Below are positions 13,596 through 30,995 of a stretch of DNA of 52,902 bases, in pieces. The position numbers and the translations under genes are program-made. The stretch's first letter is position 1; each line of letters opens with the position of its first letter. Origin of the DNA: an uncultured Gammaproteobacteria bacterium (GTDB lineage: Bacteria > Patescibacteriota > Patescibacteriia > UBA9934). The stretch spans positions 1 to 52,902 of the forward strand of contig CAZTKG010000003.1 of NCBI GenBank assembly GCA_964613815.1, written 5' to 3'. The notes beneath the pieces are model-generated. The model had not been told where the DNA came from and did not search any database. It saw nothing but the letters and a program-made list of their open reading frames with translations.

Positions 13596-14102
13596 ATGAC
13601 TTGGCAGACGCACATGATGGTAGGCGCGAACGCGGTTTGGGTCGCGGCCTACTTTGGCGGTATTGATAGCTACGCACCGGCCCTTCTTGCGGCCGGTGCG
13701 TTTGCTGCCCTACTTCCAGATATTGATGCCGGTGGGCATGGGGCGAAGATTCATCATATTGGCGGAGGGGTTTTGAAGATGTTTCGTGGGTGGTTTCAGC
13801 ATCGTGGGTTTTTTCATTCGTTTTTGGCGACGGGGTTTATCTATTTTCTTTGTTTGATCACGCTTGCGGATTATCATGCGCAGTTGCCGATTGTGATAGC
13901 CGCTGGGTATGCGAGTCACTTGATTATTGATGCGTTTAATCGGAAAGGGGCGCGCTACCTCTTTCCTGCGCCGAATTTTATATCGCCGGTACCCCGGTTT
14001 TTAACAGCGCCTGTGAAAGGCTGGACGGATTGGGCGTTTTTTGGACTTGGGTTGTATGGGGTATTTCGGTTTGTGTCAGAGTATGGTGAAGTATTTTTGT
14101 GA
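13596..14102 (+). CDS. metal-dependent hydrolase (YdjM-like, membrane associated)
   Basis: MTWQTH, LLPDID, HRGFFHS, GYASHLIIDAFN motifs. Confidence 0.85.
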   Translation: MTWQTHMMVGANAVWVAAYFGGIDSYAPALLAAGAFAALLPDIDAGGHGAKIHHIGGGVLKMFRGWFQHRGFFHSFLATGFIYFLCLITLADYHAQLPIVIAAGYASHLIIDAFNRKGARYLFPAPNFISPVPRFLTAPVKGWTDWAFFGLGLYGVFRFVSEYGEVFL

Positions 14103-15073
14103 AGATTTCGGACTACATTTATGGCGATGTCGAAATCACCGAGCCGGTGATTCTTGATTTAATCTCTTGTCCGTCCATGCAGCGTTTGAAAGGGATTTCT
14201 CAGCTTGGGCCGCCTCCGGCACTTCACTACACCTTTACGTTTGCCAGGTTTGATCATTGCGTTGGCGTTATGCTGCTTTTAAGAAAACTCGGAGCCTGTG
14301 AGGAGGAACAGGTTGCCGGGCTCTTGCATGATGTGAGCCATAGTGCGTTTTCCCATGTCATTGACTGGACGATGGAGAATCATCTGCATGAGGACTTTCA
14401 AGACCGGAATCATGAGGCGTTTTTGATGCAGAGTGAGATTCCTGAGATTCTTTCTCGGCATGGATTTGATGTAGGTCGCATTTCTGATTATCACCACTTC
14501 CCTCTTTTGGAGCAGGATGCGCCGGAGCTGTGTGCTGATCGGGTTGATTATGCGTTTCGGGAGTTTCCGCTTCCGTTTTCTCGGGAGTGCCTTGGAGGTC
14601 TTGTAGATCATGATCATCGTATTGCCTTTGCTGATCATGCGCGCGCTCGATTGTTTGCGGATGCGTACAATAAATACAACATGCAGAACTGGGGGAATTT
14701 TGAAGCGGCGTCTCGGTATCGTATTTTGGCGCATGCGATCAATCGTGGCTTTGAGACTGGTGTGCTTGCGAAGGATGATATTTGGGAAGATGACGCGCTT
14801 ATGTTGCGGAAGATGGAGGGAGCTACTGACTCTGTTATTGATGCGTGCCTTGATCTATTGCGGCATGATCGGATCAGTCATTTGCCTCGCGAGGAAACGG
14901 TAACCGTCAAAAAGCTCCGGTATGTTGACCCGCTTTTTTTGAGCGATGGATCTGCGGTTCGGCTTAGCGATGTCGATCAGGCATTTTCTGAAAATCTTGA
15001 ACGTAATCGACGGATTAATGATCTTGGTATTTACGTTGTTGATGTTGAGCGCACCATATTGGAAAAACGCTAG
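14099..15073 (+). CDS. HD-domain phosphohydrolase
   Basis: QRLKGISQLG, RFDHCVGV, LLHDVSH, DRVDY; GTG start overlaps the previous stop. Confidence 0.88.
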   Translation: MKISDYIYGDVEITEPVILDLISCPSMQRLKGISQLGPPPALHYTFTFARFDHCVGVMLLLRKLGACEEEQVAGLLHDVSHSAFSHVIDWTMENHLHEDFQDRNHEAFLMQSEIPEILSRHGFDVGRISDYHHFPLLEQDAPELCADRVDYAFREFPLPFSRECLGGLVDHDHRIAFADHARARLFADAYNKYNMQNWGNFEAASRYRILAHAINRGFETGVLAKDDIWEDDALMLRKMEGATDSVIDACLDLLRHDRISHLPREETVTVKKLRYVDPLFLSDGSAVRLSDVDQAFSENLERNRRINDLGIYVVDVERTILEKR

Positions 15074-15124
15074 ACATCTGCTGGCTCTGGAGCTATACTT
15101 CGGGCGTAATTTTTTTCTATTGCT

Positions 15125-15598
15125 ATGTCAGATGGATACATGGTTCGCGATATTATGCGAACTCCTGTGGTCACCATCAAAGCCCAGTCTTCGCTTCGCG
15201 AGGCGGTTGAATTGATGGAAACCAAAAAGACGAATGGCCTTGTTGTTATCGACAGCAAAGACCGAGTGACCGGTATTATTTCTAGCTGGGACGTGATTTC
15301 GTATATTGTTCCTGACTATTTGGAGGATGATAAGCACCTTGCTTCATTTGAAGCCGGATCTGTCCTTGAAGACCGCGTGAAGGATCTTGAGAAAGGCAAG
15401 ATTGAGGAGTTTATGACGGAGAAAGTTCACACGGTTCGTGAGAGCTCTACGGTTATGGCTGCTGCGACGATTTTGGCTGAGTTCCGCATTCGACAGCTTC
15501 CTGTGGTTGATGATGAGGACAAGCTTGTTGGGTATTTGAACCGGACAGACGTGAAGCATGTTATTGCTAAAATTTTAGGCATTGGAGGCAAAAAATAA
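15125..15598 (+). CDS. CBS-domain pair protein
   Basis: VRDIMRTPVVT...LVVIDSKDRVTGIIS; FMTEKVHTV...LPVVDDEDKLVG. Confidence 0.9.
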   Translation: MSDGYMVRDIMRTPVVTIKAQSSLREAVELMETKKTNGLVVIDSKDRVTGIISSWDVISYIVPDYLEDDKHLASFEAGSVLEDRVKDLEKGKIEEFMTEKVHTVRESSTVMAAATILAEFRIRQLPVVDDEDKLVGYLNRTDVKHVIAKILGIGGKK

Positions 15599-15601
15599 CC
15601 T

Positions 15602-16873
15602 ATGGAACCAGTTACCCTTGCCCTGGGTATCTTTTTGATTACCTACGGCATTATTATTTCTGAGAAGGTTCACCGCACAACGATTGCGCTTGTGGGTGCC
15701 ATGCTCATGATTTTGTTTGGTGTTATTGATCAGCATCATGCGGTTGAGGGGATTGACTTCAATACGCTTGGGCTGTTGATTGGAATGATGATTGTGGTTG
15801 GAATTGCGAAGGAATGTGGGATGTTTCAGTTTGTCGCGCTTTGGTCGGCGAAGGTCGCGAAGGGGAAGCCGATGCGGATCTTTATGCTACTGGGGATTAT
15901 TACGGCTGTTTTTTCTGCGCTTCTTGATAACGTGACGACGGTGCTTTTGATGGTGCCTGTGACGTTTGTGATTGCGAATAACCTACGGCTGGATCCGAAG
16001 ATCTTTTTGGTTTCGACGATTTTGCTGTCGAATATTGGTGGTGCGGCGACGTTGATTGGTGACCCTCCGAATATTTTGATTGGGTCTGCGGCTGGATTGA
16101 CCTTCATGGACTTTGTGAATCATCTTGGACCTGCGTCTTTGATTATTACGATTGTGACGCTTGGGATCTTTTACTTCATGTATAAGAAGAAGTTTGCTGC
16201 GGTGGATCCGGAGACGGCGAAGGCGTTTATGGCGTTCAATCCGAAGGATGCGATTAGTGACTATCCGCTCCTGTATAAATCCTTGTTCGTGATTGGACTT
16301 GTTCTTCTCGGGTTCTTGACGCATGGGTCTACCGGACTAGAAGGGGCAACGATTGCGCTTGCTGGTGGAGCCCTTCTCTTGCTGATGACGATGAATGATC
16401 CGGAGCATCATATGAATGATGTTGAGTGGACGACGATCTTCTTCTTTGCGGGATTGTTTGTGCTCGTAGCGGGACTGGAGCATGTTGGGGTGATTAATGC
16501 GATGGCTGAGCAGCTCCTTATCTGGACGAATGAAGATCAGACCGCGACGACAATTGCGCTTTTGTGGGGAGCAGCAGTGTTCTCAGCGATTGTTGATAAT
16601 ATTCCGTTTGTTGCGACGATGATTCCGCTCATTCAGAACATTGGGGAGATCTCAACGCTTGCTGTTGGGCCGCTTTGGTGGGCCTTGGCCCTTGGAGCTG
16701 ACATTGGAGGAAATGCCACGCTTGTTGGAGCTTCTGCGAACGTTGTGGTGAGTGGAATGGCGGAGAAAGAGGGGCACAAGATTGGCTTTATTGAGTATAT
16801 GAAGACCGCGGTGCCGCTGACGTTTGTTGGATTGGTGATTTGTACGATTTATGTTTGGATGCGGTATTTGTAG
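15602..16873 (+). CDS. ArsB/NhaD (ion transporter superfamily) permease
   Basis: About 11-12 TM segments; SALLDNVTT, SNIGGAATLIGDPPN, SAIVDNIP, GGNATLVGASAN. Confidence 0.9.
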   Translation: MEPVTLALGIFLITYGIIISEKVHRTTIALVGAMLMILFGVIDQHHAVEGIDFNTLGLLIGMMIVVGIAKECGMFQFVALWSAKVAKGKPMRIFMLLGIITAVFSALLDNVTTVLLMVPVTFVIANNLRLDPKIFLVSTILLSNIGGAATLIGDPPNILIGSAAGLTFMDFVNHLGPASLIITIVTLGIFYFMYKKKFAAVDPETAKAFMAFNPKDAISDYPLLYKSLFVIGLVLLGFLTHGSTGLEGATIALAGGALLLLMTMNDPEHHMNDVEWTTIFFFAGLFVLVAGLEHVGVINAMAEQLLIWTNEDQTATTIALLWGAAVFSAIVDNIPFVATMIPLIQNIGEISTLAVGPLWWALALGADIGGNATLVGASANVVVSGMAEKEGHKIGFIEYMKTAVPLTFVGLVICTIYVWMRYL

Positions 16874-16963
16874 AGGACTATCTTGAATCTGATGTGGAAA
16901 GCGCCCGGTTGGGCGCTTTTTTGGTAAAAAAATGACCGACCCGCAGATGCGAATCGGAGAAGG

Positions 16964-17037
16964 TGCGTACAAGGGGATTCGAACCCCTGACCCCCAGGGC
17001 CACAACCTGGTGCTCTAACCAACTGAGCTATGCACGC
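16964..17037 (-). tRNA. trnH: tRNA-His (GTG), no encoded G-1, A73 discriminator
   Basis: GCGTGCATAGCTCAGTTGGTTAGAGCACCAGGTTGTGGCCCTGGGGGTCAGGGGTTCGAATCCCCTTGTACGCA folds as a cloverleaf with GTG anticodon; preceded by C, followed by CCT. Confidence 0.93.
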
Positions 17038-17050
17038 GAAGGAGCTGGCG

Positions 17051-18535
17051 CTACTGTAGCATTCCCATGATTTCCGTCAAGGATTTGCCGTCCTCGAGTG
17101 CCCTGAGGAGGTTACTGATGAAGATCTTCCCCTGCGTCCTGTTTTCCAGGTCTTTGATCTCGACAGCCCCACCCTGGAGCTCTTGATCCCCGGTGATGAT
17201 GAGGTAGCGAATGCCGAGCTTGAGCGCGCGTGCCATCTGAGCCCGGAAAGCTCTGTCGTCACCTTGGTAGAGTTCGGTTGGGATCCCTGCTCGACGGAAG
17301 TCTGCGAGGATGCGGACGATCATGGACATGTCCGTGTCGTTGCCGAAGTTCATGACCAGAACGTCTGATGGGCAGGGTGTGACGTCGGGGAGGTCGCCCA
17401 GGTGCTCGAGTGCGGCGAACAGGCGATCGAAGCCGATGGAGGCTCCGGTTGCCGGAATCTTCGCGCTCGTGAACCTGCTGACCAGGCCGTCGTACCTTCC
17501 GCCGGAATAGACGCTTCCGAAGCTTTCCGCGCCTTCGATGGTGGTTTCGAAGACTGCGCCTGTGTAGTAGCCGAAGCCGCGTGCGATGCTGAGATCGATC
17601 ATATGCTGATTCCGCGGGACCCGCATCAGCTCGAGGAGGCGCTGGATCTCTCGGAGATCTCGGACCCCTACGAGTCCGACCTCACTGCCTTCGAGGATCT
17701 CTTCCAGACCGTCCAAAAGCGGGCGGCCGCTTGTCATGAGGAGCATGAACTCCTCAATGATCGCCAGCTGGCTGTTGTTCAGCGCCAGCGCCGACGTGTC
17801 GTGTTCGTTGTCGGGCGTGCGCGTGAGCATGGCGCGGATGCCGGTGTCCTTCTCCCCCGAACCGTCTTCGGTTGGGACCATCTGGACCCAACCGACCTTC
17901 TCGTACTTGTCGAGAATGCGGAAAAGGAGAAGCGAACGCTGGATCTCTTGACCGCTCTCGTTGTCGATCACGGCTCCGTTGATGCCGAGGATTTCCGCGA
18001 GGCCATTGAGGACCTTTCGAGAACTCCACCTCACCACGAAATCATGCGTGGTGAGGTGACTCATGGCATTGACCATCATGGCGATGATCTCTGCGTCGGC
18101 GAGGACGCTTGCGACCCCCACGACATCGGCGTCGAACTGGTTGAACTGGTAGTAGCGCCCGCTGCCGGTGGTTTCGGCGCGGAACACCGGACCGTGACAC
18201 CAGCGACGCCATGGGAGAACGATGTCGGTGATGTTGGCCGCGACGTAGCGTGCGAGCGGGACCGTCTGGTCGAAGCGCATGGCGATGCGCTGCCGATCGT
18301 CGTCTTCGCCCTTGCCGCCCTTGCGGTCCGGATAGGCGTTCCAGAGCTTTCCGGTTGCCTCGGCTTCTCCGACGAGGACTTCGCGACGCTCGAGCAGCGG
18401 TGTCTCGAGCTCCATGAATCCGTAGCGCTCGTAGACATCCTGAATGAGCATGGCGAGGATGCGCCTCTGCGCAGCGGCCTCTGGGCCATAGTCGTTGAAC
18501 CCACCGAGCTTGGCAGGACTGATAAGAGTCGACAT
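17051..18535 (-). CDS. hisS: histidine--tRNA ligase
   Basis: RFDQTVPLARYVA, QFNQFDADVVG, histidine-binding loop RGFGYYTG, GGRYDGL, GASIGFDRL, C-terminal anticodon-binding domain. Confidence 0.95.
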   Translation of the reverse strand: MSTLISPAKLGGFNDYGPEAAAQRRILAMLIQDVYERYGFMELETPLLERREVLVGEAEATGKLWNAYPDRKGGKGEDDDRQRIAMRFDQTVPLARYVAANITDIVLPWRRWCHGPVFRAETTGSGRYYQFNQFDADVVGVASVLADAEIIAMMVNAMSHLTTHDFVVRWSSRKVLNGLAEILGINGAVIDNESGQEIQRSLLLFRILDKYEKVGWVQMVPTEDGSGEKDTGIRAMLTRTPDNEHDTSALALNNSQLAIIEEFMLLMTSGRPLLDGLEEILEGSEVGLVGVRDLREIQRLLELMRVPRNQHMIDLSIARGFGYYTGAVFETTIEGAESFGSVYSGGRYDGLVSRFTSAKIPATGASIGFDRLFAALEHLGDLPDVTPCPSDVLVMNFGNDTDMSMIVRILADFRRAGIPTELYQGDDRAFRAQMARALKLGIRYLIITGDQELQGGAVEIKDLENRTQGKIFISNLLRALEDGKSLTEIMGMLQ

Positions 18536-18624
18536 GATTCCCTCTGGGTTGTAAATGTGCGCTCCAACCTTGGCGGAATTGCATTATCTTGTCAATCGTG
18601 TTTCAGTGATATCAAATACTATCT

Positions 18625-20157
18625 ATGTTTCATACTATTACTGGTGAGAGCTTAACCATTGAACAAATCGCTGGGGTTGCTCGTAAAAAGGAGCGTATTG
18701 AGATTACGACATCTGCACTTGAGAAGGTTTCGCGTGCGCGAGCGTTTGTGGATGAATTGGTTGCCGGGGATGAGGTCGTTTATGGAATCACGACGGGATT
18801 TGGGCAATTTAAAAATGTAACGATTTCTCGCGATCAGGCTCGGGAATTGCAAGAAAACTTGATTCGATCGCATGCAACGGGAGTTGGCGAGCCACTTCCT
18901 GAGGACCAGGTTCGGGCGAGTATTCTTGTACGACTCAATAGCTTGCTTCGAGGGCATTCTGGGATTCGGCCAGTGGTCGCTGATCGGTTGGTTGATTTAC
19001 TGAATAAAGACGTTTATCCGTATGTGCCCTGCAAAGGATCTGTTGGGTCAAGTGGAGATCTTGCGCCGCTTTCGCATATCATTTTGGTTTTGATGGGCGA
19101 AGGCGAAGTTATTTTAAATGGTGTTCGCGTGCCGTCTGCGTCCGTCCTCGCACAGAAGCAGATTGAGCCCATTGCGCTCATGGCAAAGGAAGGGTTAGCG
19201 CTTAATAACGGGACGTCAGTACAGACCGGTATTGGGGCTTTAGCTGTCCATGATGCAGGGCGTTTGGCCACGGTTTTTGATATTAGTTTAGCGATGAGTT
19301 TAGAGGTCTTGATGGGGTCAGTAGCTGCGTATGATCCTCGTGTACACGCGCTTCGCCCTCATCCTGGACAGATTTCGGTTGCTGAAAACATTAGAAAACT
19401 AACTGCCGAATCTGAGATTGTTGCCTCTCATGAAGACTGCGATCGTATTCAAGATGCGTATTCGCTTCGGTGTGCGCCACAAGTGCATGGAGCCAGCCGA
19501 GATGCGATTCGACATGTTCGAGAAGTCATTACACGGGAGATCAACTCGGTTACGGACAACCCCCTGCTCTTCCCCGCTGATCGTGAGGCGATCAGTGCTG
19601 GGCACTTCCATGGCGAGCCAATTGCGCAAGTTATGGATTATTTGAAGATCGCGGTTTGTGAGTTAGCGAATATCTCGGAACGTCGTATTGCGCGGATCGT
19701 TGATCCGTCTCTTTCTGAGGGGTTGCCGGCGTTTTTGATTCCTGAGGAGCAAGCTGGAATCTCGTCTGGGTTTATGATCCCGCAATATGTGGCAGCAGCA
19801 CTTGTTTCGGAAAACAAGGTCTTAGCGCATCCGGCGTCTGTTGATTCGATCCCTACGTCCGCGAACCAGGAAGACCATGTGAGCATGGGGACGATTGCAG
19901 CTCGACAGGCTTATGAGATTACGCAAAACGCCTTGCAGGTTGCTGTCATCGAGCTTCTTTGCGGGGCGCAGGGAGTGGATTTTCGGAAGCCTCTAAAACC
20001 CGGACATGGTGTAGACGCTGCATATTCATGCATTCGGTCTCATGTCAGCAAGATGGAGCGGGACCGCATCCTGTATACTGACCTTGAAGCTATTTCCTCG
20101 CTAATCCCAGATGAACTTCTCGCTCAAGTAGAATCCTCGACTGGCCAACTTTTGTAG
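18625..20157 (+). CDS. hutH: histidine ammonia-lyase (MIO enzyme)
   Basis: YGITTGFG, LIRSH (His-selective SH), GSVGSSGDLAPL, KEGLALNNGT, QDAYSLRCAPQVHG, GHFHGEP, NQEDHVSMG. Confidence 0.92.
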   Translation: MFHTITGESLTIEQIAGVARKKERIEITTSALEKVSRARAFVDELVAGDEVVYGITTGFGQFKNVTISRDQARELQENLIRSHATGVGEPLPEDQVRASILVRLNSLLRGHSGIRPVVADRLVDLLNKDVYPYVPCKGSVGSSGDLAPLSHIILVLMGEGEVILNGVRVPSASVLAQKQIEPIALMAKEGLALNNGTSVQTGIGALAVHDAGRLATVFDISLAMSLEVLMGSVAAYDPRVHALRPHPGQISVAENIRKLTAESEIVASHEDCDRIQDAYSLRCAPQVHGASRDAIRHVREVITREINSVTDNPLLFPADREAISAGHFHGEPIAQVMDYLKIAVCELANISERRIARIVDPSLSEGLPAFLIPEEQAGISSGFMIPQYVAAALVSENKVLAHPASVDSIPTSANQEDHVSMGTIAARQAYEITQNALQVAVIELLCGAQGVDFRKPLKPGHGVDAAYSCIRSHVSKMERDRILYTDLEAISSLIPDELLAQVESSTGQLL

Positions 20158-20230
20158 CCAGTCTTGACCCCTCCTTAATAAATGTGACAAAATCGATCAC
20201 GCAAAGTGATCTTTCAAACTGGAGCTATTT

Positions 20231-21022
20231 ATGAGCACTGACCATGGCATTTCCCGTTCCGAAACCGACTACGTCGTGAACGCGGCCGGCGGGAACGGAA
20301 CCGCAATCCACCTGGTGGATACAGATCATGACCGCGCATGGTGTGAGCGCGAAGGCGTTGCACTCATGCAGGAGGAAAAAGATGTCGCAGAGCAGTGCGG
20401 CTTCCTCAATCCGCATACTGGTCATTTCGAGATGGCCGGTGGAGAGTTCTGCGGAAACGCAGCTCGTTCTGCGGCGATGATTCTGTCGCTTGTCCGTGAT
20501 GATGAAGACGAGATCGACTTCGATGTCTCCGGCTACGACGGCACCGTTCATGCCTCCGTGGATTGGCTCGATGGCCCTCGCGCACACGTTCGAGTGACTT
20601 TCGACAATCTGCCCGCAAAAGCTGTTCCTGTCGATGTGGAGGGGGCTGAGAACGCCTGGCTGGTTGATCTTGGCGGGATTGTACACGTCGTGGTCGAGGA
20701 TCGGTTCCCGGCGACGACGTTCCAAGAGCGGCACCGGAGCATCACCGAGAAGCTCGGCCTCGGCCAGCGCGGCTGCGTTGGCGTCTGCTGGCTCAAGCGC
20801 GGTGAAGACGGGCAGCCGGATCATATCGATCCTGTCGTCTGGGTTCGCAGTATCTCGTCGTTCTTCTACGAGTCCGCGTGTGGCTCTGGCAGCATCGCTG
20901 CTGAAGCCGTCACTCATCACTCAAGCATCGAACAGCCGTCCGGTGAGGTGATCTACGTTCACCGCCGCGGCAAGGCCGTTACCCTCCGTAGCGACATGGA
21001 GATCATCCGTGCACACTCGTAG
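20231..21022 (+). CDS. DapF-fold amino-acid racemase/epimerase, histidine racemase (CntK)-like
   Basis: GGNGT, EQCGF, MAGGEFCGNA, PVVWV...ESACGSG and EQPSG mirror the motifs I recall from S. aureus CntK (SGN, EQVGF, MSGNEFCGNA, ENSCGSG, HQPGG); both catalytic Cys present. Confidence 0.8.
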   Translation: MSTDHGISRSETDYVVNAAGGNGTAIHLVDTDHDRAWCEREGVALMQEEKDVAEQCGFLNPHTGHFEMAGGEFCGNAARSAAMILSLVRDDEDEIDFDVSGYDGTVHASVDWLDGPRAHVRVTFDNLPAKAVPVDVEGAENAWLVDLGGIVHVVVEDRFPATTFQERHRSITEKLGLGQRGCVGVCWLKRGEDGQPDHIDPVVWVRSISSFFYESACGSGSIAAEAVTHHSSIEQPSGEVIYVHRRGKAVTLRSDMEIIRAHS

Positions 21023-21584
21023 CCCACTGCCCATTCGACGCGTCACCGATGTCGATGATCCCGCTCGTGATGGATTCATCGATGTGTACAAAGAGGCCTT
21101 TGGTGGCCCTCCGTACAACGAAGATCAGCCCCGTGATTGGGTCCGTGAGCACGTGTGGGGTTTGCATGTTTCTCATTGCCTGTTCGTCTGCGAAGACACT
21201 GACGGCTCTGTGATCGGCATGTCTTGCGCGCTTCCCGTGCTTGCGCCGGGAGCTGAGGCGTGCGGAAACTTCCTCTCTGGCTGCAGCGGGATCCCGTTTG
21301 ATTTGAGGGATGCAATCTATATGTCTGAAGTTGGCGTCGCTGTGCGCGCTCGTCGACGTGGACTTGGTACTCGTCTCATCCGCGCTCGGATTGCCTGGGG
21401 TCTCGAGAACGACTTTGGACACTTCGTGATGCGTACCGCGAGTGCAGGATCTCATTCTGCCGGCATCTACCTTCGCATGGGATGCACACAACTCCCCCAT
21501 GTGCAGAACGTTGGCGGCGAAGACGTCGCTTCAGCGAGTAGTCATCGCATCTATATCTTTGGCCCGACCAGCTTGGCGGCCTAG
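21009..21584 (+). CDS. GNAT family N-acetyltransferase
   Basis: YMSEVGVAVRARRRGLGTRL acetyl-CoA motif A; GIYLRMGC motif B. Confidence 0.85.
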   Translation: MHTRSPLPIRRVTDVDDPARDGFIDVYKEAFGGPPYNEDQPRDWVREHVWGLHVSHCLFVCEDTDGSVIGMSCALPVLAPGAEACGNFLSGCSGIPFDLRDAIYMSEVGVAVRARRRGLGTRLIRARIAWGLENDFGHFVMRTASAGSHSAGIYLRMGCTQLPHVQNVGGEDVASASSHRIYIFGPTSLAA

Positions 21585-21606
21585 ATACGAGCTTCGGCTC
21601 GTTTTT

Positions 21607-22260
21607 TTATCGGTAAATTTTGTCGTAAATTGCCTTTGCCTTTTTGTAATACCAGGCCCACTCTTTATCTCCGTAAGAAAAATGCCACCATTCATAGTCA
21701 AAAGGAGCGAATCCTTGTTTCATGAGCAGCTCTCTTAGAATGGTCCTATTTTCCTTTTGTACCTCGCCTACATCCTTCGCAAAGAACTGAATCTTTTTCG
21801 TATTTGAGAAATCTCCGACTCCTGTCCCCATGTCAATTTCCTTGCCGTTTATTGCTATTGTAATGTCTATTGCGCCTCCCGTGATGTGCCCCGCAACATC
21901 TGGAGATGCGGAAAGTAAATGAGCTGTCTTTACGAGGTCTTTTTCCGGCACTCCCTGCTTCCGAAATTCTTCAACTCGCTTGTTGAAATACATCTCTTGA
22001 ACGTCCGGATGCCTGTATGAATAAGCCAAGTCTAGCTGTGCCTCTGGCATGAGTTTAATTAACTCTTTTGCTGCTTTTTTAAGCATTTTTGCCACTTTTT
22101 TCCGAATCAAAAAGTCTTCACCGATCCGCGATATCATGTCTTTTTTTCTGTAATTACATGCGATTTCTGGTGCGAACTCTTGAACTACAACCAATTCTTC
22201 CCCACATTCTGTCGTTGGGATATCAACCAGATCTTTATATTGCGCGAATCTTGGCTCCAT
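21607..22260 (-). CDS. M15D D-alanyl-D-alanine dipeptidase-like (VanX/DdpX family)
   Basis: SYRHPDVQ, GHITGGAID, DMGT, YEWWHFSYGD; visibly AT-rich compared with the flanks. Confidence 0.88.
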   Translation of the reverse strand: MEPRFAQYKDLVDIPTTECGEELVVVQEFAPEIACNYRKKDMISRIGEDFLIRKKVAKMLKKAAKELIKLMPEAQLDLAYSYRHPDVQEMYFNKRVEEFRKQGVPEKDLVKTAHLLSASPDVAGHITGGAIDITIAINGKEIDMGTGVGDFSNTKKIQFFAKDVGEVQKENRTILRELLMKQGFAPFDYEWWHFSYGDKEWAWYYKKAKAIYDKIYR

Positions 22261-22327
22261 ATATTCTTCGTATTGACTTTCATCTTAGCCCCTGTAATCT
22301 ATTAGTGCAACTTTTTTTGGAGGAAAG

Positions 22328-22896
22328 ATGTCTCTTCCTGACGGTATCTTGATTCGTCGCGTGACGGATCCGAGGGACCCTGCACGTGCGGGGTTTGTAC
22401 GTCTGTATCGCGAGGCGTTTGCGGCAGCTCCCTATCATGAGAGCTGGACTGTCGACGAGGTTCGCGGGACTTGGGCAACGTATGTTCCGCATGGCTTGTT
22501 CGTTGCGGAAGATGCGGATGGTGAGGTGATCGGGTTTGGGTGTGTGAAGCCGCTTCAGATCGGTGATGAACCGTCCACGTCCGTGCAGTACATGATCGAT
22601 CACCATGACGGCACGCTGCCGTTTGATCCGACGTCAACGGCGCACATGGGCGACGTTGCAGTGGATGCGATGACGCGCGGACTTGGGATCGGGACGGCGC
22701 TTGTACGTGCGCGGCTTCGGTGGGCGCATGACGAAGGGTTTGACTGCAGACCGCTCATGAAGGGTCGCATTCTGCGGGGATCTACCGTCGACTTGGGTGC
22801 CAAGAGCTGCCGGTGCGGATTCCGACGAGCATCTACAACAAGCCTTCGGCGAATACGCACAACATTGTTCTTTGGCGCCTGGTCTGCCCGTTCTAA
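22328..22896 (+). pseudogene. GNAT family N-acetyltransferase paralog with a frameshift near 22745-22750
   Basis: N-terminus is paralogous to 21009..21584 (IRRVTD..DPAR.GF..Y.EAF...PY). The conserved tail TAHEGSHSAGIYRRLGCQELP is in another frame that ends at TAA 22894-22896. Confidence 0.75.
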
Positions 22897-22967
22897 GACC
22901 TTCAATCACGAAACTTCTCGTGATTTTTTTGTATAAAAAGGCCCTCCTTGTGGGAGGACGTGTGCTT

Positions 22968-24212
22968 CTAGGCCGCGAAGCGATTGAGGAGCTCGATGAG
23001 GCCGTCGCGGTAGGCGACAAGACTGTCAAGGTCGACCCATTCGTCTGGGCTGTGAGCGTTTCCGTTCATGGGCGCCATACAAATTGCTGTTGCGTCTGGA
23101 CACTTCGATGCCAGCATAGCGATGTCGATGTAGCCGAAGTCATGCGGACTCACACGTGCGCCGCCGTGTACAGCTTCGGTAGCCGAAGTGATGTCGTCAG
23201 GAGCGCCATCTGGAGATATATAGTGGTCATGAGCGAAGCGCTCTACGAAAAGCTCGATCCTGCATGTATGCAAGCCGCCCTTCTTCACGTGCTGCTCGTT
23301 CCACCTCGCAACCGCCTCTTCTACTACTTTACGCACAGCGATCATGCTGACGTGTGGACCTCCGGGACGGATATCAACGCGCGCCCAAGCTGCATTCGGG
23401 ATCTTATTCGCCTTGAACCCCACGTTCGGGATTGGCGCCTCGAGATCCTTGACGTCGTCGACCTTGACTGGGATCTCTGCCCCAGGTTCAAGCGAGCCAG
23501 CCTTGATAGCAGCCACATTGCAGGAAGTCGGGATATCCCCACCTGCATTCTCGCAGAAATCCTGCAAGGCCCTCACCGTCTCACACATTGCGAAAACGGC
23601 GTTCGCCCCCTCGTGTTGACGGGCCGCGTGACCACTGTTGCCTGCGATGACGAAGTCGAACTCCATACATCCGCGGCATGATCTGAGAATCTTGGCCTTT
23701 GCGCCGCAGACGCTCAGCATCTGTTGCGGACGAATCTCAGGATGATCCCGAACAAAGGCCTCCATGCCCTTGAACAACGTCTCTTCATCACTGTAGAAAA
23801 GTAGCGCGACCCTGTCGGTCCTCCCTGCTCGGCGAACGGCATCCAGGATACCTGCGATACCACCCTTTGCATCACTGGCGCCGAGAGCGTAGTAGCGTCC
23901 GTTCTGAATGACGTGCTCCTCTACCGTCCAACCACTTGACGGCTCGACCGTGTCGAGGTGTCCAATGATGAGGAGCTCAACCTCCTTCTCTGAGCCACTG
24001 AGAGCGAGTAGATTTGGGCGCTGGACCTCCCCGTCTTGAATGTTCTCGATACTGACCTGAAGCCATGGCGCGTGCTCTTCGAGATAGAGCTTGATCGCGA
24101 TGGCAAATTCATGTTCACTTGCCTTGTCTTTTTTCCAGAAGCTCGGGATGCGACAGAGTGCATCGACAAGCTGGATGACAGATTCGGAATGAATGGCTTG
24201 GCTATGCGTCAT
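22968..24212 (-). CDS. M20 family metallopeptidase/deacylase (ArgE/DapE-like)
   Basis: GHLDTV, GASDAKGG, SDEE, GHAA, AHSPDEW; start placed at ATG 24212. Confidence 0.88.
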   Translation of the reverse strand: MTHSQAIHSESVIQLVDALCRIPSFWKKDKASEHEFAIAIKLYLEEHAPWLQVSIENIQDGEVQRPNLLALSGSEKEVELLIIGHLDTVEPSSGWTVEEHVIQNGRYYALGASDAKGGIAGILDAVRRAGRTDRVALLFYSDEETLFKGMEAFVRDHPEIRPQQMLSVCGAKAKILRSCRGCMEFDFVIAGNSGHAARQHEGANAVFAMCETVRALQDFCENAGGDIPTSCNVAAIKAGSLEPGAEIPVKVDDVKDLEAPIPNVGFKANKIPNAAWARVDIRPGGPHVSMIAVRKVVEEAVARWNEQHVKKGGLHTCRIELFVERFAHDHYISPDGAPDDITSATEAVHGGARVSPHDFGYIDIAMLASKCPDATAICMAPMNGNAHSPDEWVDLDSLVAYRDGLIELLNRFAA

Positions 24213-24314
24213 AGATCTTCTCTTGTGAAAGGTGCGCCTAGATCTTACCTGAAATTGATCGTAAAACAAGAAATATGTCAACAGCAAAAAACCCCCTCGT
24301 AAGAGGGAGTCTTT

Positions 24315-24391
24315 TGGAGCCGATGAGCGGATTCGAACCGCTGACCTGCTGTTTACAAAACAGCTGCTCTAACCAGCTGAGCTACATCGGC
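24315..24391 (-). tRNA. trnT: tRNA-Thr (TGT)
   Basis: GCCGATGTAGCTCAGCTGGTTAGAGCAGCTGTTTTGTAAACAGCAGGTCAGCGGTTCGAATCCGCTCATCGGCTCCA. Confidence 0.96.
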
Positions 24392-24400
24392 AGGCTTGTT

Positions 24401-24462
24401 AAAATGCCTTGAGATCGTTCCGTGCCTCCGGTCCTCGTCCCGAAACGATCTCAAGGCATTTT
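24401..24462. repeat. hairpin element, short copy (19-bp inverted arms)
   Basis: AAAATGCCTTGAGATCGTT ... AACGATCTCAAGGCATTTT; the loop contains CTCCGGTCCTCG, shared with 39334..39439. Confidence 0.85.
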
Positions 24463-24554
24463 TCCTGCGCCTGCCCCGAGGCGATTAAATACACTGAGAT
24501 CGTTCCGTTTCTGGATACATTGGCAAAAAAACAGCTAGCAAGACAGGCGCCGGA

Positions 24555-24653
24555 AAAATGCTCTGTCATCGTATTTCTTTCGAGCACCGCAGTAAGACGT
24601 ACTAAATGTACGTCGTCGAGGAGCGCAGAAAAAATACGATGACAGAGCATTTT
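24555..24653. repeat. hairpin element, long copy (22-bp inverted arms)
   Basis: AAAATGCTCTGTCATCGTATTT ... AAATACGATGACAGAGCATTTT, with an internal ACGTAC/GTACGT stem. Confidence 0.85.
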
Positions 24654-24663
24654 ACCAAGCCTG

Positions 24664-24749
24664 TGGTGGGCCGGGACGGATTCGAACCGCCGAAGGCGAA
24701 TGCCAGCAGGTTTACAGCCTGCCCCGTTTGACCGCTTCGGTACCGACCC
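24664..24749 (-). tRNA. trnY: tRNA-Tyr (GTA)
   Basis: GGGTCGGTACCGAAGCGGTCAAACGGGGCAGGCTGTAAACCTGCTGGCATTCGCCTTCGGCGGTTCGAATCCGTCCCGGCCCACCA; long variable arm. Confidence 0.96.
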
Positions 24750-24821
24750 CTTTTTGATTGAGCGTGGGGGCAGTGTACAAAATCTTCCAAAGATCGTCAA
24801 CAAAAATACCGCCCCCTTTTA

Positions 24822-25619
24822 TCAGGAGCGGGAATTGCGGATTTCGTCGATCTGCTGTGCGTATTCCTTGCGGATGAAGCGGTCGTAGACAGCGGTCCAA
24901 GCTTCGGGGAGGCGCATATCGCGGTAGCGGTCGCTCTCGTAAAAGCTATGGAGCAGGACGGGCTGTCGGACACTGACAAGGATGCGCATGAACATGTCTG
25001 GCGACATGGCGATACAGAGCTGTACTGCATCTTCCATGAGACGCGTCGCGATCCTTGGGCTACGATCGTGGATCGCGGCTGCTGTGTAGATCATGCGCGA
25101 CATCGCGCGAAGGATGGTGAGGGTGCGGAACTCTGCGATCCTGCAGACGGCAGCGATCTGATCTTCTTTACTGAAGAACTCCATGTCGACCGCTTCACCG
25201 TCGTCGCCTTCGATGACGAGAACACCGGCTCCCATGAAGCGCTGAGGGCCTCGATTGAGGGCAAACTCGTCGCTTGCCGGATCTACACCAGCAAAGCGGA
25301 GCCACCTTGTCGCGAGTGCGTAGTGCATCCCTGTACTCCTCGTTGGCGCTCTGGCGATAGCGCGGAGAATCTTCTCGATGTCCTCGCTCTCGATCACCTG
25401 CTCGGTGATTTCTGACACGCTCCGCTCTGCGAGTGCCTCGCGCCTTACGATGGCAATGCGGTCGATGTGCCAGATGATGGCGAGGAAGATTGCTTCGGCG
25501 CAGACGAGACCGAGCGTGATGATGGAGAGATCCATCTTCTTGTTGTGGATACTGTAGCCTGCAGAGCCGATGATGCCAAGGAAGAGGAGGATACAGATGA
25601 TGACGATGATTTTGCGCAT
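24822..25619 (-). CDS. two-TM hypothetical protein, paralog array member 1
   Basis: Two N-terminal TM helices joined by NKKMDLSII; C-terminal LCIAMSPDMF...LPEAW. Confidence 0.75.
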   Translation of the reverse strand: MRKIIVIICILLFLGIIGSAGYSIHNKKMDLSIITLGLVCAEAIFLAIIWHIDRIAIVRREALAERSVSEITEQVIESEDIEKILRAIARAPTRSTGMHYALATRWLRFAGVDPASDEFALNRGPQRFMGAGVLVIEGDDGEAVDMEFFSKEDQIAAVCRIAEFRTLTILRAMSRMIYTAAAIHDRSPRIATRLMEDAVQLCIAMSPDMFMRILVSVRQPVLLHSFYESDRYRDMRLPEAWTAVYDRFIRKEYAQQIDEIRNSRS

Positions 25620-25723
25620 TTCTGCTCCTAATGAAAGAAAAGAACTGGTTTATTTAACAGTATTGTGGAATTTTGTCAATTGAATAAAAAATCCTACGCC
25701 TTCTTGGGCGTAGGTGCTGCAGG

Positions 25724-26425
25724 CTACGGGGCCTGCTGCTTGCTGCGGTAGCTCTGGGCGACCTTTGTGATCATGCTCGACCAAGGTTCGCCAATCTTCG
25801 TGACCGTGTTGATGCGCTTGACCTCGAGGAGATCCAGCGCTGCCTGTAGCGGGGCACTTGCCTCGATGAAGACCTCGAGCTGGCCGGGAGCAATGAGGCG
25901 ACCGGTCATGAGGAGGTCCATCGCGATGTCCATGACCTTACCCTCAGACGCAGGCGTGGCTTGCGCTGCCTGGGTCCAGGTTGCGACCTCGGCTTCGATC
26001 TCGCTCTTGAGTTCCGTCATCCGCTTGAAGACGAGCTGCGTGTGACCGAGGGAGAGGTCTGCCATGCGGTCCAGGACCGAGACCATGAAGTCGACGCTGC
26101 GAGGCCACTCGATCCGCGGCGGGCGGTCGAACTGACCGCTCATGAGGGAGGCGATCTGAGCGTAGCTGCCGTCCTTGCCGGGCGATGCGGTCGCGACGGC
26201 CATGATGAGCTCTTCGGCCTTCTTGACGACAGTCATCGCGCGGCTCTCGAGTGCGTTCGCCCAGATGATCTCGATGATTCCTGAGACCGACGTGAGGGAG
26301 AACAGGAGGAGCGTCAGCTTGGCGACACTGCCCTTGTTGTCGATGTCGTAGCTGAGCGTGAGCGCGGTGAGAGAGGCGCAGACGACGAGAATTGCCCTGT
26401 TTGCCAGGCGAAGTTTGTTTGACAT
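25724..26425 (-). CDS. two-TM hypothetical protein, probable paralog array member 2 (most divergent)
   Basis: Two N-terminal TM helices with an NKG loop; C-terminal LIAPGQL...IGEPW; start placed at ATG 26425. Confidence 0.7.
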   Translation of the reverse strand: MSNKLRLANRAILVVCASLTALTLSYDIDNKGSVAKLTLLLFSLTSVSGIIEIIWANALESRAMTVVKKAEELIMAVATASPGKDGSYAQIASLMSGQFDRPPRIEWPRSVDFMVSVLDRMADLSLGHTQLVFKRMTELKSEIEAEVATWTQAAQATPASEGKVMDIAMDLLMTGRLIAPGQLEVFIEASAPLQAALDLLEVKRINTVTKIGEPWSSMITKVAQSYRSKQQAP

Positions 26426-26457
26426 GCAAGACTCCTGTGGAAGGTGCGTTGGGCCTG

Positions 26458-26486
26458 AAGTTAGCATTTTTTGTGGTTTTTGTCAA
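26458..26486 (-). promoter_or_regulatory. sigma70-type promoter
   Basis: TTGACA-N17(ending TGC)-TAACTT upstream of ATG 26425. Confidence 0.6.
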
Positions 26487-26536
26487 GGTTTTTGCGCGCG
26501 CAGCAAAGAAAAAAACCCCCTTGACGGAGGTGTGGT

Positions 26537-27193
26537 CTAGCTCTGTAGTGCCCTGAGCCAGACATAATGTAGCTCCATATGCCTCTGACTCACGAGCCAT
26601 GCAACGACGCGCTGTGTAGGCTCATCTGCCGATCGGACGATCTGAGCGAAGCTTGCCGGAGACACCATTCGGGACACGTGCTTGATTCGAATGGCTGCAG
26701 ACGCGATTTTTACGGAGTCTTCTGACGACAAATCCGCCGTCTCGTGACCCGCAAGGCCTTCGATCGTGCTGCACTCGTAACGAATTGCGGACGCCACCTG
26801 TCGCATGGTGTTCTGCAGGATTGTACGAAGAACACGGGATGAAGAGTCCGCGTTCTGAAATCCTTGCTGGGCCAGCGAGACGTGGAGGTGCTCTACATCC
26901 ATGGCTCCGATCGAGAGCCTCCCCTCCATGTAGGCGGTGAGAAGCGGGAAGACCAGCATGGCATCTGGATCGTTGATCCTGGGCGCAGACCTATCTGCCC
27001 CGATCTTCTTCTTGTTTCTATAGCGCGTGACCGCCTTGCTGACCACGACGACGCCGAGAGCGCCGATGACCACGATCGCCATGTCGTGCTTCTTGCTGAC
27101 GAGACTGATGGTGAGCGAGACGATCGTAGTGGCGTAGGCGAGCCATTCGACCCAACGCTGGGCGCGGATGAAGAATGCTTTGATGCGGCTCAT
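26537..27193 (-). CDS. two-TM hypothetical protein, paralog array member 3
   Basis: Two TM helices joined by SKKHDMAIV; C-terminal VSRMVSPASF...LHYVW. Confidence 0.75.
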   Translation of the reverse strand: MSRIKAFFIRAQRWVEWLAYATTIVSLTISLVSKKHDMAIVVIGALGVVVVSKAVTRYRNKKKIGADRSAPRINDPDAMLVFPLLTAYMEGRLSIGAMDVEHLHVSLAQQGFQNADSSSRVLRTILQNTMRQVASAIRYECSTIEGLAGHETADLSSEDSVKIASAAIRIKHVSRMVSPASFAQIVRSADEPTQRVVAWLVSQRHMELHYVWLRALQS

Positions 27194-27237
27194 CTGTATC
27201 TCCGTTGAAGGTGCGTTTCTCTTTTAGAAGAGGTCTG

Positions 27238-27266
27238 ACGTTAGCATTTTTCTTCATTACTGTCAA
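27238..27266 (-). promoter_or_regulatory. sigma70-type promoter
   Basis: TTGACA-N17(ending TGC)-TAACGT. Confidence 0.6.
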
Positions 27267-27303
27267 GGTCTTTGCCTATAAAAAAGAACCAGCTCTTGCT
27301 GGC

Positions 27304-28008
27304 TCAGGACGATGTGTTTGGCCTCGGTGTTCTGCCCTCTGCATAGGCCATGACGACCTCTCGCCAGGGCTCGGGGAGCTGAAATTCCGCGCCCCTCAGA
27401 AAGGTCTTGATGTCTTCTGATCCGCGCTGGCGCAGAAGGCTGTAGAGGACATCTGGTGCCATAGAGGTGCAGAGCTGCTCGAACACGGGCAGTCCACTGC
27501 TTGTCACCGCGCGTGCTGCGTGGTCTGGGCTCAGTGTTGCGTCCCTTGCGGCGCTCATGACTTCTAGGAGCGCTCCGAACGCCCTCCTGTTCATTGCGAG
27601 ATGCACTATCACCGCGGCATGGACGAATGTCACCGCAGCCTCTCCCCTTGGGGATTCTCCGGTACGTGCTACTCGAATGAACAGCTCTCTTGCCGTCTCC
27701 AAGGTCATGAAGTCCCGATTGATGAGGAATAGACCGATCATGCCCTCGCTATAACCGATTGATTTGTGAGAGACTTGGTTCAGCTCATCGAGCTCTTGCT
27801 GGAGCTGTCGTGATCTTGCCTCTGCCTGCTCTACGTCAGGTATGACGTAGCGGCGGAAGAGGAGTTCAGAGATGAAGAGAGCGGCAGCGATGGCGCCGAT
27901 GATGATGGAAAGGTCGTGCCTCTTGCTCATCACGCTGATGGCGACGATGAGGGGGATGACGCCGTATGCGGCCAGGCGTCCGTAAAAGATCTTCTTGCTC
28001 GTGAGCAT
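27304..28008 (-). CDS. two-TM hypothetical protein, paralog array member 4
   Basis: Two TM helices joined by SKRHDLSII; C-terminal LCTSMAPDVL...LPEPW. Confidence 0.75.
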   Translation of the reverse strand: MLTSKKIFYGRLAAYGVIPLIVAISVMSKRHDLSIIIGAIAAALFISELLFRRYVIPDVEQAEARSRQLQQELDELNQVSHKSIGYSEGMIGLFLINRDFMTLETARELFIRVARTGESPRGEAAVTFVHAAVIVHLAMNRRAFGALLEVMSAARDATLSPDHAARAVTSSGLPVFEQLCTSMAPDVLYSLLRQRGSEDIKTFLRGAEFQLPEPWREVVMAYAEGRTPRPNTSS

Positions 28009-28048
28009 ATGTTCTCCTGGTTTGATCTTGATGAATCACGAGAGAGAG

Positions 28049-28077
28049 AATTTAGCATCCTTTTCGCTTATTGTCAA
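28049..28077 (-). promoter_or_regulatory. sigma70-type promoter
   Basis: TTGACA-N17(ending TGC)-TAAATT. Confidence 0.6.
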
Positions 28078-28151
28078 TGATTTTTGTGTTCAGACGAGCT
28101 TGACATGGTGCCTGTGTTATGCTATTCTCGTGGTCCTCTTTGGAGCTCCTC

Positions 28152-28382
28152 ATGCCCTCTTCATCTATCTCTTCTCTGTCCCGTGTCGTCCCCGGCGTCG
28201 GCCCTGGTGTTTCCGATTCTGCCGTGCGTCAGGACCTCGCTCGTCGTGGATTCCCGACGCCTCAGCCTGTGACTCCAGCGCCCGCTTCGGCCACCGATCA
28301 GGCGACGGTCGACGACCGCGATCTGCCCAGGCCTGGCCCGCCGCTCGACGTCTATGGCCGCGATGGCCGATTCGGTCGATAG
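28152..28382 (+). CDS. small Pro/Ser-rich hypothetical protein (76 aa)
   Basis: Upstream TTGACA-N17-TATGCT, GGAG RBS, and a downstream hairpin + T-run (AACGCTCCGAA...TTCGGGCGTTTTTTT). Confidence 0.45.
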   Translation: MPSSSISSLSRVVPGVGPGVSDSAVRQDLARRGFPTPQPVTPAPASATDQATVDDRDLPRPGPPLDVYGRDGRFGR

Positions 28383-28467
28383 CGCCCCCTCTCAACGCTC
28401 CGAATGTTCGGGCGTTTTTTTTGATGTGCTGGGAGCACATCAAAAAAACGCCCTCCTTGCGGGAGGA

Positions 28468-28836
28468 CTAGGTGGTCACTGGAGCGACGGTGATGCTGGG
28501 CCGCTCGTTGTCGCGGACCATGCGTATCTCGTGGACGATGTGGAACAGGGTCATGAGCGTCGCAGCTCCTGTAGCGAAGCCGTTTGCGATCGCGGGGTCG
28601 ATTCCTTCCAGCCTTGTGACGTATAGAGAGAGGATGAATCCTACGCCAAGCCAGATGCGTAAGAACTGCATGTTCATGGGCAGATCTCTGCCCTCACTGC
28701 GGCGTTCTTGGATGAAGATGGCCATGAAAGCAAGGCCTGCGATCGCCTTCATGACCAGACTGTGCCAGATCAGCATCGATGAGATGAGCATGACGAGGTA
28801 GGTGAGGAAGCGAAAGAGCCGGTGTGGTCCGAACAT
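28468..28836 (-). CDS. small membrane protein
   Basis: 122 aa with about 4 hydrophobic segments; GGAGAA RBS. Confidence 0.65.
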   Translation of the reverse strand: MFGPHRLFRFLTYLVMLISSMLIWHSLVMKAIAGLAFMAIFIQERRSEGRDLPMNMQFLRIWLGVGFILSLYVTRLEGIDPAIANGFATGAATLMTLFHIVHEIRMVRDNERPSITVAPVTT

Positions 28837-28965
28837 GTGTTCTCCGGGAATGTACGTTAAGCCTGGCGGATTTTTTGGGTTTTGTCAAGAGTGGAAATAA
28901 ATAACCCCTCCGGATTCCAGAGCCCTTGCGGGATGGAATCGGAGGTGGCGAGGGAGTAGCGCGCG

Positions 28966-29817: not shown

Positions 29818-29872
29818 GATGGTCTCCTGATGGATGGAATGATCGGGGTGTGCACGGGTGTACAACTGGCGA

Positions 29873-30296: not shown

Positions 30297-30311
30297 ACAC
30301 GAGGAAAACGA

Positions 30312-30992: not shown

Positions 30993-30995
30993 GAC

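Follow-up and report, generated by a model that had tools for sequence, protein, structure and literature searches.

Genes and features of the histidine locus

The region described here (positions 16962-24287) lies within a 52.9-kb window, which is the whole stretch of DNA that was analysed, and encodes a probable histidine racemase together with a tRNA-His, a histidine--tRNA ligase (HisRS), a histidine ammonia-lyase (HAL), GNAT-family acetyltransferases, an M15 peptidase and an M20 deacylase. It is the form in which one lineage carries a histidine module that is conserved across the Patescibacteria (candidate phyla radiation, CPR). The core of this module is racemase-GNAT-M15, to which HAL, hisS and a deacylase of the L-type (either M20 or AstE/AspA-like) are recurrently added as accessories. 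By the synteny and fusion counts given below, this gene arrangement is far beyond chance.

The tRNA-His gene (GTG; 16962-17037, minus strand) was identified by ARAGORN and by the Rfam tRNA model (71.2 bits). It lies directly downstream of hisS, and a terminator-like hairpin was located 3' of it by consensus scan (16957-16936). hisS (17051-18535, minus strand) encodes a 494-aa HisRS with the Pfam domains tRNA-synt_His and HGTP_anticodon and a TIGR00442 score of 300.9 bits (cut-off 286.75 bits). Gene coordinates place a divergent intergenic region of 89 nt (18536-18624) between hisS and hutH (18625-20157, plus strand). The 510-aa product of hutH is an equivalog-level HAL (TIGR01225; 684.9 bits, cut-off 539.15 bits) and carries both the MIO-forming sequence GSVGSSGDLAPL and the S82-H83 selectivity motif. 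The MIO triad, in the region of residues 138-149, is Ser-Ser-Gly in place of the usual Ala-Ser-Gly. The HALs of five of the loci introduced below (L005, L006, L030, L036 and L038) share SSG, and module-adjacent CPR HALs carry either SSG or ASG.

The next gene (20231-21022, plus strand) encodes a 263-aa CntK/HisR-type cofactor-independent racemase, probably a histidine racemase, as judged from NCBIfam models, profile searches and predicted fold. Its NCBIfam scores are 48.4 bits for HisR (NF052224), 44.1 bits for CntK (NF033599) and 17.6 bits for the diaminopimelate (DAP) epimerase DapF (TIGR00652), and all three are below the equivalog cut-offs (400, 300 and 114.65 bits, respectively). The protein has no match in a local Pfam-A search, and its precomputed Pfam domain is PF26317 (CntK_N). 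When a profile built from 17 racemase homologues was compared with the PDB, it matched HisR (9CR1/9CR6; E-value: 5e-24) and CntK (6JIS; E-value: 1e-17), and it matched genuine DapF chains with E-values of only 0.05-0.3. The AlphaFold2 (AF2) model (pLDDT 93.9, pTM 0.91) gave the same ranking in Foldseek: HisR first (E-value: 2e-18, TM 0.71-0.75), CntK second (E-value: 3e-17, TM 0.68) and DapF third (TM 0.60-0.64). By both model and search, the protein has the two-domain DapF-like fold of HisR/CntK-type racemases. Its identification as DapF itself was ruled out by the low model score and by the weaker profile and fold ranking, and a reading of the locus as part of the DAP pathway (acyltransferase, M20 and DapF) was ruled out by the model score and the structure ranking.

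Seven residues of the racemase (N22, E54, Q55, E72, C74, E214 and C217) are invariant in the 17 homologues. Two of these are the catalytic cysteines, C74 (in GGEFCGN) and C217 (in YESACGSG), which align to C67 and C209 of HisR; in the same alignment N22, E54, E72 and E214 correspond to HisR N18, E49, E65 and E206. C67 and C209 are the catalytic pair of HisR, N18, E65 and E206 are proposed contacts for the amino group or imidazole of the substrate, E49 is the equivalent of CntK E46, and CntK E208 has also been proposed; these roles are proposals and not proven contacts (PMC11602996). HisR, whose physiological role has yet to be established, and CntK are the only cofactor-independent histidine racemases characterised so far (PMC11602996). 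Judged from its sequence, the window protein is classified as a member of the HisR/CntK superfamily that forms a separate clade and is an equivalog of neither enzyme. Its substrate, on the evidence of the alignment and the structural model, is probably histidine. An exhaustive profile search (E-value ≤ 1e-30) found the family to consist of about 142 clusters at 50% identity.

The start of the GNAT1 gene (21009-21584, plus strand; 191 aa) overlaps the racemase stop by 14 nt. GNAT1 has the conserved domain Acetyltransf_1 and the acetyl-CoA motif RRRGLG. A homologue search recovered 42 uncharacterised proteins, the few with source names coming from CPR or unclassified metagenome-assembled genomes (MAGs), and a GNAT profile produced only generic GNAT matches in the PDB. 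The AF2 model (pLDDT 94.8) is nearest to PA4866, ArsN, BAR, YncA and the tabtoxin resistance protein TTR, enzymes that modify free amino acids or analogues of these by acetylation at the alpha-amino group.

GNAT2 (22328-22936, plus strand) is a frameshifted paralogue of GNAT1 (41% identity over residues 9-138) and a probable pseudogene that is divergent from the M15 gene. Its frame breaks near 22742-22750, and the conserved C-terminus (HEGSHSAGIYRRLGC...) resumes in the frame that opens at 22744. Assembly error was rejected as the cause: because the sequence, frameshift included, is identical in six independent assemblies, the frameshift can be considered real. In no other fetched locus is GNAT2 the best match of a neighbouring open reading frame (ORF).

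Between the two GNAT genes lies a gene for a 217-aa VanX-type M15 zinc peptidase (21607-22260, minus strand; PF01427, 52.5 bits). It is convergent with GNAT1, from which it is separated by a GC-rich hairpin with T-runs (21587-21602) that is terminator-like by consensus match only. The best PDB match of the M15 protein is VanX (1R44; E-value: 2.4e-11), and the protein falls below the equivalog cut-offs of the VanX model (39.6 versus 320 bits) and the DdpX model (45.1 versus 176 bits). Across 28 sequences, R82, H124, D131, E189 and H192 do not vary; H124/D131 and the EWWH motif (E189 and H192) align to the matching motifs of 1R44. We take these five residues to be the full VanX set, comprising the His-Asp-His zinc ligands, the catalytic Glu and the transition-state Arg. 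VanX-type zinc peptidases cleave amide bonds preceding a C-terminal D-amino acid. No signal peptide-like N-terminus was found on the M15 protein. Its gene differs in composition from its neighbours, with 42% GC, a GC3 of 0.43 and 11.5% lysine, compared with 56-61% GC and 0.5-4% lysine for the flanking hisS, racemase, GNAT and M20 genes. The GC content of the HAL gene is also lower (50%), and the locus is compositionally mosaic; the M15 gene may be a recent replacement acquired by transfer.

The last gene of the region (22968-24212, minus strand, convergent) encodes an ArgE/DapE-like M20 N-acyl-amino-acid deacylase of 414 aa when read from ATG; an alternative TTG start is found at 24287. This protein has the conserved domains M20 and M20_dimer, and among solved structures it comes nearest to the deacetylases of acetylornithine and acetylcitrulline and to DapE.

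An Rfam scan of positions 14000-27000 (E-value ≤ 0.1) found neither a T-box nor any other Rfam element besides three tRNAs. Promoter- and terminator-like matches, including those in the 89-nt hisS/hutH spacer, are no more numerous than in shuffled sequence and are used here descriptively only. Pfam scans of all larger ORFs of the window found no urocanase, imidazolonepropionase or formimidoylglutamase domain and no nicotianamine-synthase-like or opine dehydrogenase domain.

Many ORFs of the window have no Pfam match; judged from this and from its best homologues, the organism is probably a patescibacterium. After tRNA-Thr and tRNA-Tyr, positions 24399-29901 hold a run of minus-strand ORFs (134-311 aa) in which called ORFs, including one of 311 aa, have no such match. 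Further along (30276-34652, all on the plus strand) are genes for an Asp/Glu racemase (PF01177), a 457-aa ORF without a Pfam match, an S58 DmpA-type aminopeptidase and an M24 peptidase. This cluster suggests that the organism invests heavily in the processing of unusual peptides.

An earlier description of the window, made from the DNA letters and referred to here as the sequence-only reading, had placed tRNA-His and hisS on the strand opposite hutH, with the hisS and hutH starts 89 nt apart, followed by a DapF-fold enzyme with CntK-type motifs and by a convergent ArgE/DapE-like M20 gene. The strand arrangement is borne out by the coordinates and the equivalog-level scores, the 89-nt distance is exact, the two best NCBIfam matches of the DapF-fold enzyme are indeed the histidine racemase models, and the M20 gene lies as described. 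Its statement that hutU, hutI, hutG, cntL and cntM are missing from the window agrees with the Pfam scans of the larger ORFs. Where it described two paralogous GNATs, the paralogy holds; the two genes are not adjacent, and GNAT2 is frameshifted. Its gene list was incomplete in that the M15 gene between them had been overlooked.

Conservation and fusion of the module genes

A scan of one genome per species with the racemase yielded 80 loci; individual loci carry L numbers in what follows. Most are from Patescibacteria (Saccharibacteria, Komeili-, Kaiser-, Taylor-, Magasanik- and Falkowbacteria, and Paceibacterota/Parcubacteria), and a few are from Clostridium, Cardiobacterium and other genera. 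Phylogenetic relatedness is common among the fetched loci (many belong to oral Saccharibacteria), and the counts below are not counts of independent events. Stronger evidence than these counts is provided by the variety of gene orders and lineages and by the occurrence of fusions in both orders.

Of the 47 CPR-named loci, 34 have a GNAT1-family gene no more than 0.3 kb from the racemase, and 41 have an M15 gene at a distance of up to 2 kb. In 23 of the 47, hisS is located within 6 kb of the racemase; in a genome of approximately 1 Mb, roughly 1-2% would be expected by chance, and the observed frequency is about 30 times higher. HAL is found within the same distance in 12 of the 47. Of 45 CPR-named loci, 33 have at least one histidine-specific gene (hisS, HAL, hisG or hisE) no farther than 6 kb away, as do 11 of 15 placeholder-named MAGs.

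hisS is part of same-strand gene runs in L007, L009, L027, L041, L042, L046 and L085. The gene order in these runs varies: racemase-GNAT-hisS-M15 in L027, hisS-racemase-GNAT-M15 in L007 and L009, and TrpR-racemase-GNAT-M15-hisS in L042 and L046. A gene for a TrpR-like helix-turn-helix protein is located immediately upstream of the racemase in 13 loci, and one is recorded upstream in L007. The racemase-adjacent hisS genes of L007, L009, L056, L067, L080 and L085 score above the TIGR00442 cut-off. HisZ-like paralogy was rejected as an explanation for low-scoring adjacent HisRS genes because all but the first copy of L047 pass this cut-off. This copy (1415-2737 of L047) is a HisZ-like second HisRS with a score of 240.6 bits and no anticodon-domain match; it is located 1.5 kb upstream of the racemase, with the true hisS downstream.

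Clustering of the neighbouring proteins identified long-form hisG in 16 loci, hisE (PRA-PH) in 11, AstE/AspA-like deacylases in 9+4 and SLOG/LOG-like proteins in 7+5. hisG (with HisG_C) and hisE are directly upstream of the racemase in oral Saccharibacteria (L010-L012, L015, L017-L020 and L025). These loci have no further histidine biosynthesis gene within 7 kb, and the orphan pair is unexplained in organisms thought to lack amino-acid biosynthesis. Genes for SLOG/LOG-like, phosphoribosyltransferase, nucleoside hydrolase and HD_4 proteins also recur nearby in various loci.

Close M20 homologues (284-355 bits) are directly upstream of the racemase in L005, L057 and L060, three loci that resemble the window more than any others do, and L064 has a weak match to M20 (21 bits) in the same place. 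In other lineages, the module contains the unrelated AstE/AspA family instead of M20. That one family can take the place of the other speaks for the deacylation of N-acyl-L-amino acids as a step of the system. A recurrent deacylase also fits the idea, raised in the sequence-only reading, of an acetylation/deacetylation cycle.

Outside the CPR, racemase homologues mostly stand alone. The racemase contexts in Clostridium, Cardiobacterium, Microbacterium and Desulfobacteraceae consist of unrelated housekeeping or uncharacterised genes and give no functional clue. hutU, hutI, hutG, cntL, cntM and the Cnt transporter are not found among the recurrent neighbours of 77 loci. In L006, two full copies of the racemase gene stand in tandem (9120-10741; 203 and 234 bits), with HAL on their upstream side and GNAT and M15 after them. 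In three oral Saccharibacteria loci (L078, L082 and L084), the racemase is reduced to its C-terminal ~100 residues (match 161-260) beside an intact M15; these loci have neither GNAT nor hisG-hisE and look like cases of module decay in some lineages.

Several of the module genes are fused. In-frame M15-racemase fusions are encoded in L051, L061 and L068, and in-frame racemase-GNAT fusions in L052, L056 and L085. L080, from a Clostridia MAG outside the CPR, encodes a full-length HisRS (351 bits with TIGR00442) fused to a CntK-like domain (93 bits with the CntK model). The fusions in the fetched loci keep the catalytic motifs of both halves. Of the family representatives that are 440-500 aa in length, all 10 tested are fusions (four racemase-GNAT, three M15-racemase and three racemase-M15). 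Because both M15-racemase and racemase-M15 orders are seen, these fusions must have arisen in independent events. The fusions and the synteny together show that the racemase, GNAT and M15 proteins act in concert, with HisRS functionally tied to them.

The sequence-only reading had suggested looking in related genomes for synteny of hisS, hutH, racemase and GNAT. The adjacency proved to be conserved, with hisS, HAL, hisG and hisE recurring beside the racemase across several Patescibacteria lineages. As to which genes make up the system, racemase and GNAT do belong to the core; HAL and M20 are accessories, and the M15 core member was one that the earlier description had not seen. Its broader proposal of an undescribed histidine-handling system, neither a Hut pathway nor a staphylopine cluster, gains support from the racemase identity, the synteny and the fusions. 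The gene identities, the catalytic residues, the conserved synteny and the gene fusions are direct observations.

Proposed function and competing explanations

In the favoured explanation, the module may serve D/L-histidine salvage and homeostasis in a likely histidine auxotroph, a proposal for and against which the chances appear evenly balanced. We infer histidine as the substrate, D-to-L as the direction and the substrates of the GNAT and the peptidase, and the proposed model is as follows. The M15 peptidase would free D-histidine from D-configured dipeptides or from acyl-D-histidine. The racemase, whose gene appears to be translationally coupled to that of the GNAT, would interconvert D- and L-histidine. 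HisRS would draw off L-histidine for translation, and HAL would act as a second L-histidine sink by converting surplus to urocanate and ammonia. Between them, the GNAT and the deacylase would build up and break down N-alpha-acyl-histidine as a protected or trapped pool. The net effect would be histidine salvage and homeostasis in an organism that is probably unable to make histidine. The peptidase-racemase and HisRS-racemase fusions fit this order of hydrolysis, release of D-histidine, conversion to L-histidine and charging.

Several points weigh against this model. The racemase scores far below the histidine racemase cut-offs (48 versus 400 bits and 44 versus 300 bits) and forms a separate clade, and its substrate could differ. 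The assignment of GNAT1 to free amino acids is weak, its fold search being nearly flat with E-values of 3e-9 to 1e-7 across many subfamilies. Roughly one locus in four lacks a histidine-specific neighbour within 6 kb, and HAL and M20 are each present in a minority of loci. The peptidase input is the weakest step of the scheme; we know of no natural source of D-histidine-containing dipeptides. Furthermore, a salvage route does not obviously need a GNAT, and the tight coupling of racemase and GNAT fits the biosynthesis of N-acyl-D-histidine from L-histidine by way of D-histidine equally well.

The last point leads to an anabolic alternative, which is unlikely as a whole despite that fit. Imported L-histidine would be converted to D-histidine, which the GNAT would at once N-acylate or pass to another acceptor. 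The product would serve outside primary metabolism, for instance in metal binding, as part of the envelope or as a secreted effector, and M15 and M20 would recycle or edit it. CntK, the only racemase of this type with a known pathway role, converts the L- into the D-form, which it provides to a biosynthetic enzyme (PMC7438024). In most loci the genes for the racemase and the GNAT abut or overlap, and in several they are fused, an arrangement typical of genes for consecutive steps, and a peptidase with VanX-type recognition of a C-terminal D-residue could act on acyl-D-histidine. The fusion of a D-histidine producer to a housekeeping HisRS, as in L080, would however be counterproductive, and the hydrolase-racemase fusions in both orders point to hydrolysis that feeds the racemase. 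No exporter, ligase or tailoring gene recurs among the neighbours, and for an auxotroph, scarce histidine would be costly to spend in this way.

A role in the recycling of peptidoglycan D-amino acids is improbable. M15 would in this case be a D-Ala-D-Ala dipeptidase or related enzyme, the racemase would act on the released D-amino acid or on Lys, Orn or DAP, and the histidine genes would be adjacent for regulatory or historical reasons. The failure of the racemase to reach the DapF cut-off (17.6 versus 114.65 bits), and its greater closeness to histidine racemases in both sequence and structure, speak against this explanation, even if GNAT, racemase and M20 in combination do recall the late DAP pathway. 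All three of the conserved glutamates lining the pocket of HisR and CntK are invariant here, and alanine would not require them. M15 keeps the VanX catalytic set and has VanX as its best solved relative, as this role would predict; the window also contains a second D-amino-acid/peptide cluster (30276-34652, described above), and an S66 LD-carboxypeptidase-like gene is located inside the L005 module. Nevertheless, no mur or ddl gene recurs among the neighbours, whereas four histidine-specific genes do, and it is HisRS that has been fused to the racemase.

Protection of HisRS has a slimmer chance still of being the function of the module. The GNAT and peptidases would inactivate a toxic histidine analogue, D-histidine or an inhibitor of the histidyl-adenylate type, and the racemase would clear D-histidine before it is mischarged, in parallel with the PAT/ArsN acetyltransferases and with MccE/MccF acting against microcin C. 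The structures nearest to GNAT1 (PA4866, ArsN, BAR and the tabtoxin resistance protein) do detoxify amino-acid analogues, but the ranking of these structures is not discriminating. Similarly, the S66 gene of the L005 module belongs to the MccF/LdcA family, but S66 genes are rare (2-3 loci). Co-location with hisS, sometimes in the same orientation, would be expected of such a system; HAL, hisG-hisE and the recurrent L-type deacylases would be left unexplained by it. Finally, a chance adjacency of unrelated housekeeping and accessory genes has almost no probability: drift can preserve operons among close relatives, and many of the loci are from related oral Saccharibacteria, but the trio is kept between racemases that are only about 45-50% identical, in several CPR classes and gene orders, and this explanation is effectively refuted by the synteny, with hisS adjacent about 30 times more often than expected, and by the fusions in both orders.

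For salvage and homeostasis, a more specific version of the model can also be put forward, which is doubtful as it stands. The module would be a patescibacterial operon for the management of histidine chirality, co-transcribed with HisRS and made up of a D-specific peptidase, a racemase, an acyl trap and an L-specific deacylase, with fusion to HisRS in at least one Clostridia genome outside the CPR.

Relation to characterised systems

HisR of Fusobacterium nucleatum (FN1732; PDB 9CR1/9CR6) shares with the window racemase its fold, the cysteines of GGEFCGN and YExxC(G/A)SG and the proposed ligands, and it too is encoded without a metallophore cluster. The two proteins are only about 21-22% identical, and the gene neighbours of HisR are V-ATPase and aminodeoxychorismate genes, with no GNAT, M15, hisS or HAL among them. 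CntK of Staphylococcus aureus (PDB 6JIS/6JIW), which functions in staphylopine production, shares the fold, the catalytic motifs and the CntK_N domain. However, the cntL (nicotianamine synthase-like) and cntM genes that define the staphylopine (Cnt) cluster are found neither in the window nor among the recurrent neighbours, and there is no Cnt transporter. Of the Hut pathway, the window contains an equivalog-level HAL with the MIO and S-H motifs and, in its 52.9 kb, no hutU, hutI or hutG (or hutF); here HAL is instead paired with hisS and the racemase module.

The closest parts list is that of an operon of Geobacillus kaustophilus. As Sakai et al. are said to have described in Biochemistry in 2006, this operon reportedly carries out an irreversible D-to-L conversion by means of a GNAT D-amino-acid N-succinyltransferase, an N-succinylamino acid racemase and an M20 L-desuccinylase. 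It has the same combination of GNAT, racemase and M20 and is a precedent for the steering of chirality by acylation and deacylation. In contrast, the window racemase has the DapF/CntK fold and keeps the ligands of the free alpha-ammonium group, and the Patescibacteria module adds a VanX-type peptidase and is tied to histidine genes. Because it keeps the residues that bind the free alpha-ammonium group, the window racemase is unlikely to belong to the N-acyl-amino-acid racemases of the enolase superfamily. In the genome of L092 (GCA_964746005.1), which encodes a racemase-M15 fusion, an MR_MLE gene followed by an M20 gene lies approximately 6 kb downstream (15580-17449), and this MR_MLE and M20 arrangement resembles the pair of N-succinylamino-acid racemase and desuccinylase.

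The pairing of a racemase with a D,D-peptidase also follows the logic of VanX/DdpX (M15D) and of VanT-VanXY, which are encoded together in VanC-type clusters. Unlike those clusters, the module has no recurrent D-Ala-D-X ligase or VanH, and its racemase is of the histidine type, independent of pyridoxal phosphate and not a VanT serine racemase.

A literature search on this module in Patescibacteria and Saccharibacteria found nothing relevant, and the papers on HisR and on the CntK zincophore do not mention this racemase clade or its gene context (PMC11602996, PMC7438024). The enzymes themselves belong to known families; as far as we can tell, it is the combination of racemase, GNAT and VanX-type peptidase and its link to HisRS that are new. 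A practical consequence concerns annotation, as the proteins of the module are routinely labelled diaminopimelate epimerase and D-Ala-D-Ala dipeptidase.

Beside the two characterised cofactor-independent histidine racemases, the proteins described here form a third, large clade, and their genomic context points to a supply of histidine for translation. Much of bacterial diversity belongs to the Patescibacteria, most of which are uncultured and whose nutrition is poorly understood. If the chirality-management proposal is true, these ultra-small, host-dependent bacteria would be using D-histidine or D-histidine peptides as a genuine nutrient or currency, and the module would be the first amino-acid-specific system for chirality salvage or proofreading that acts before aminoacylation. 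As an operon whose genes have been fused repeatedly, it provides testable hypotheses on how these organisms obtain and police an essential amino acid and on the role that D-histidine may have in microbial communities.

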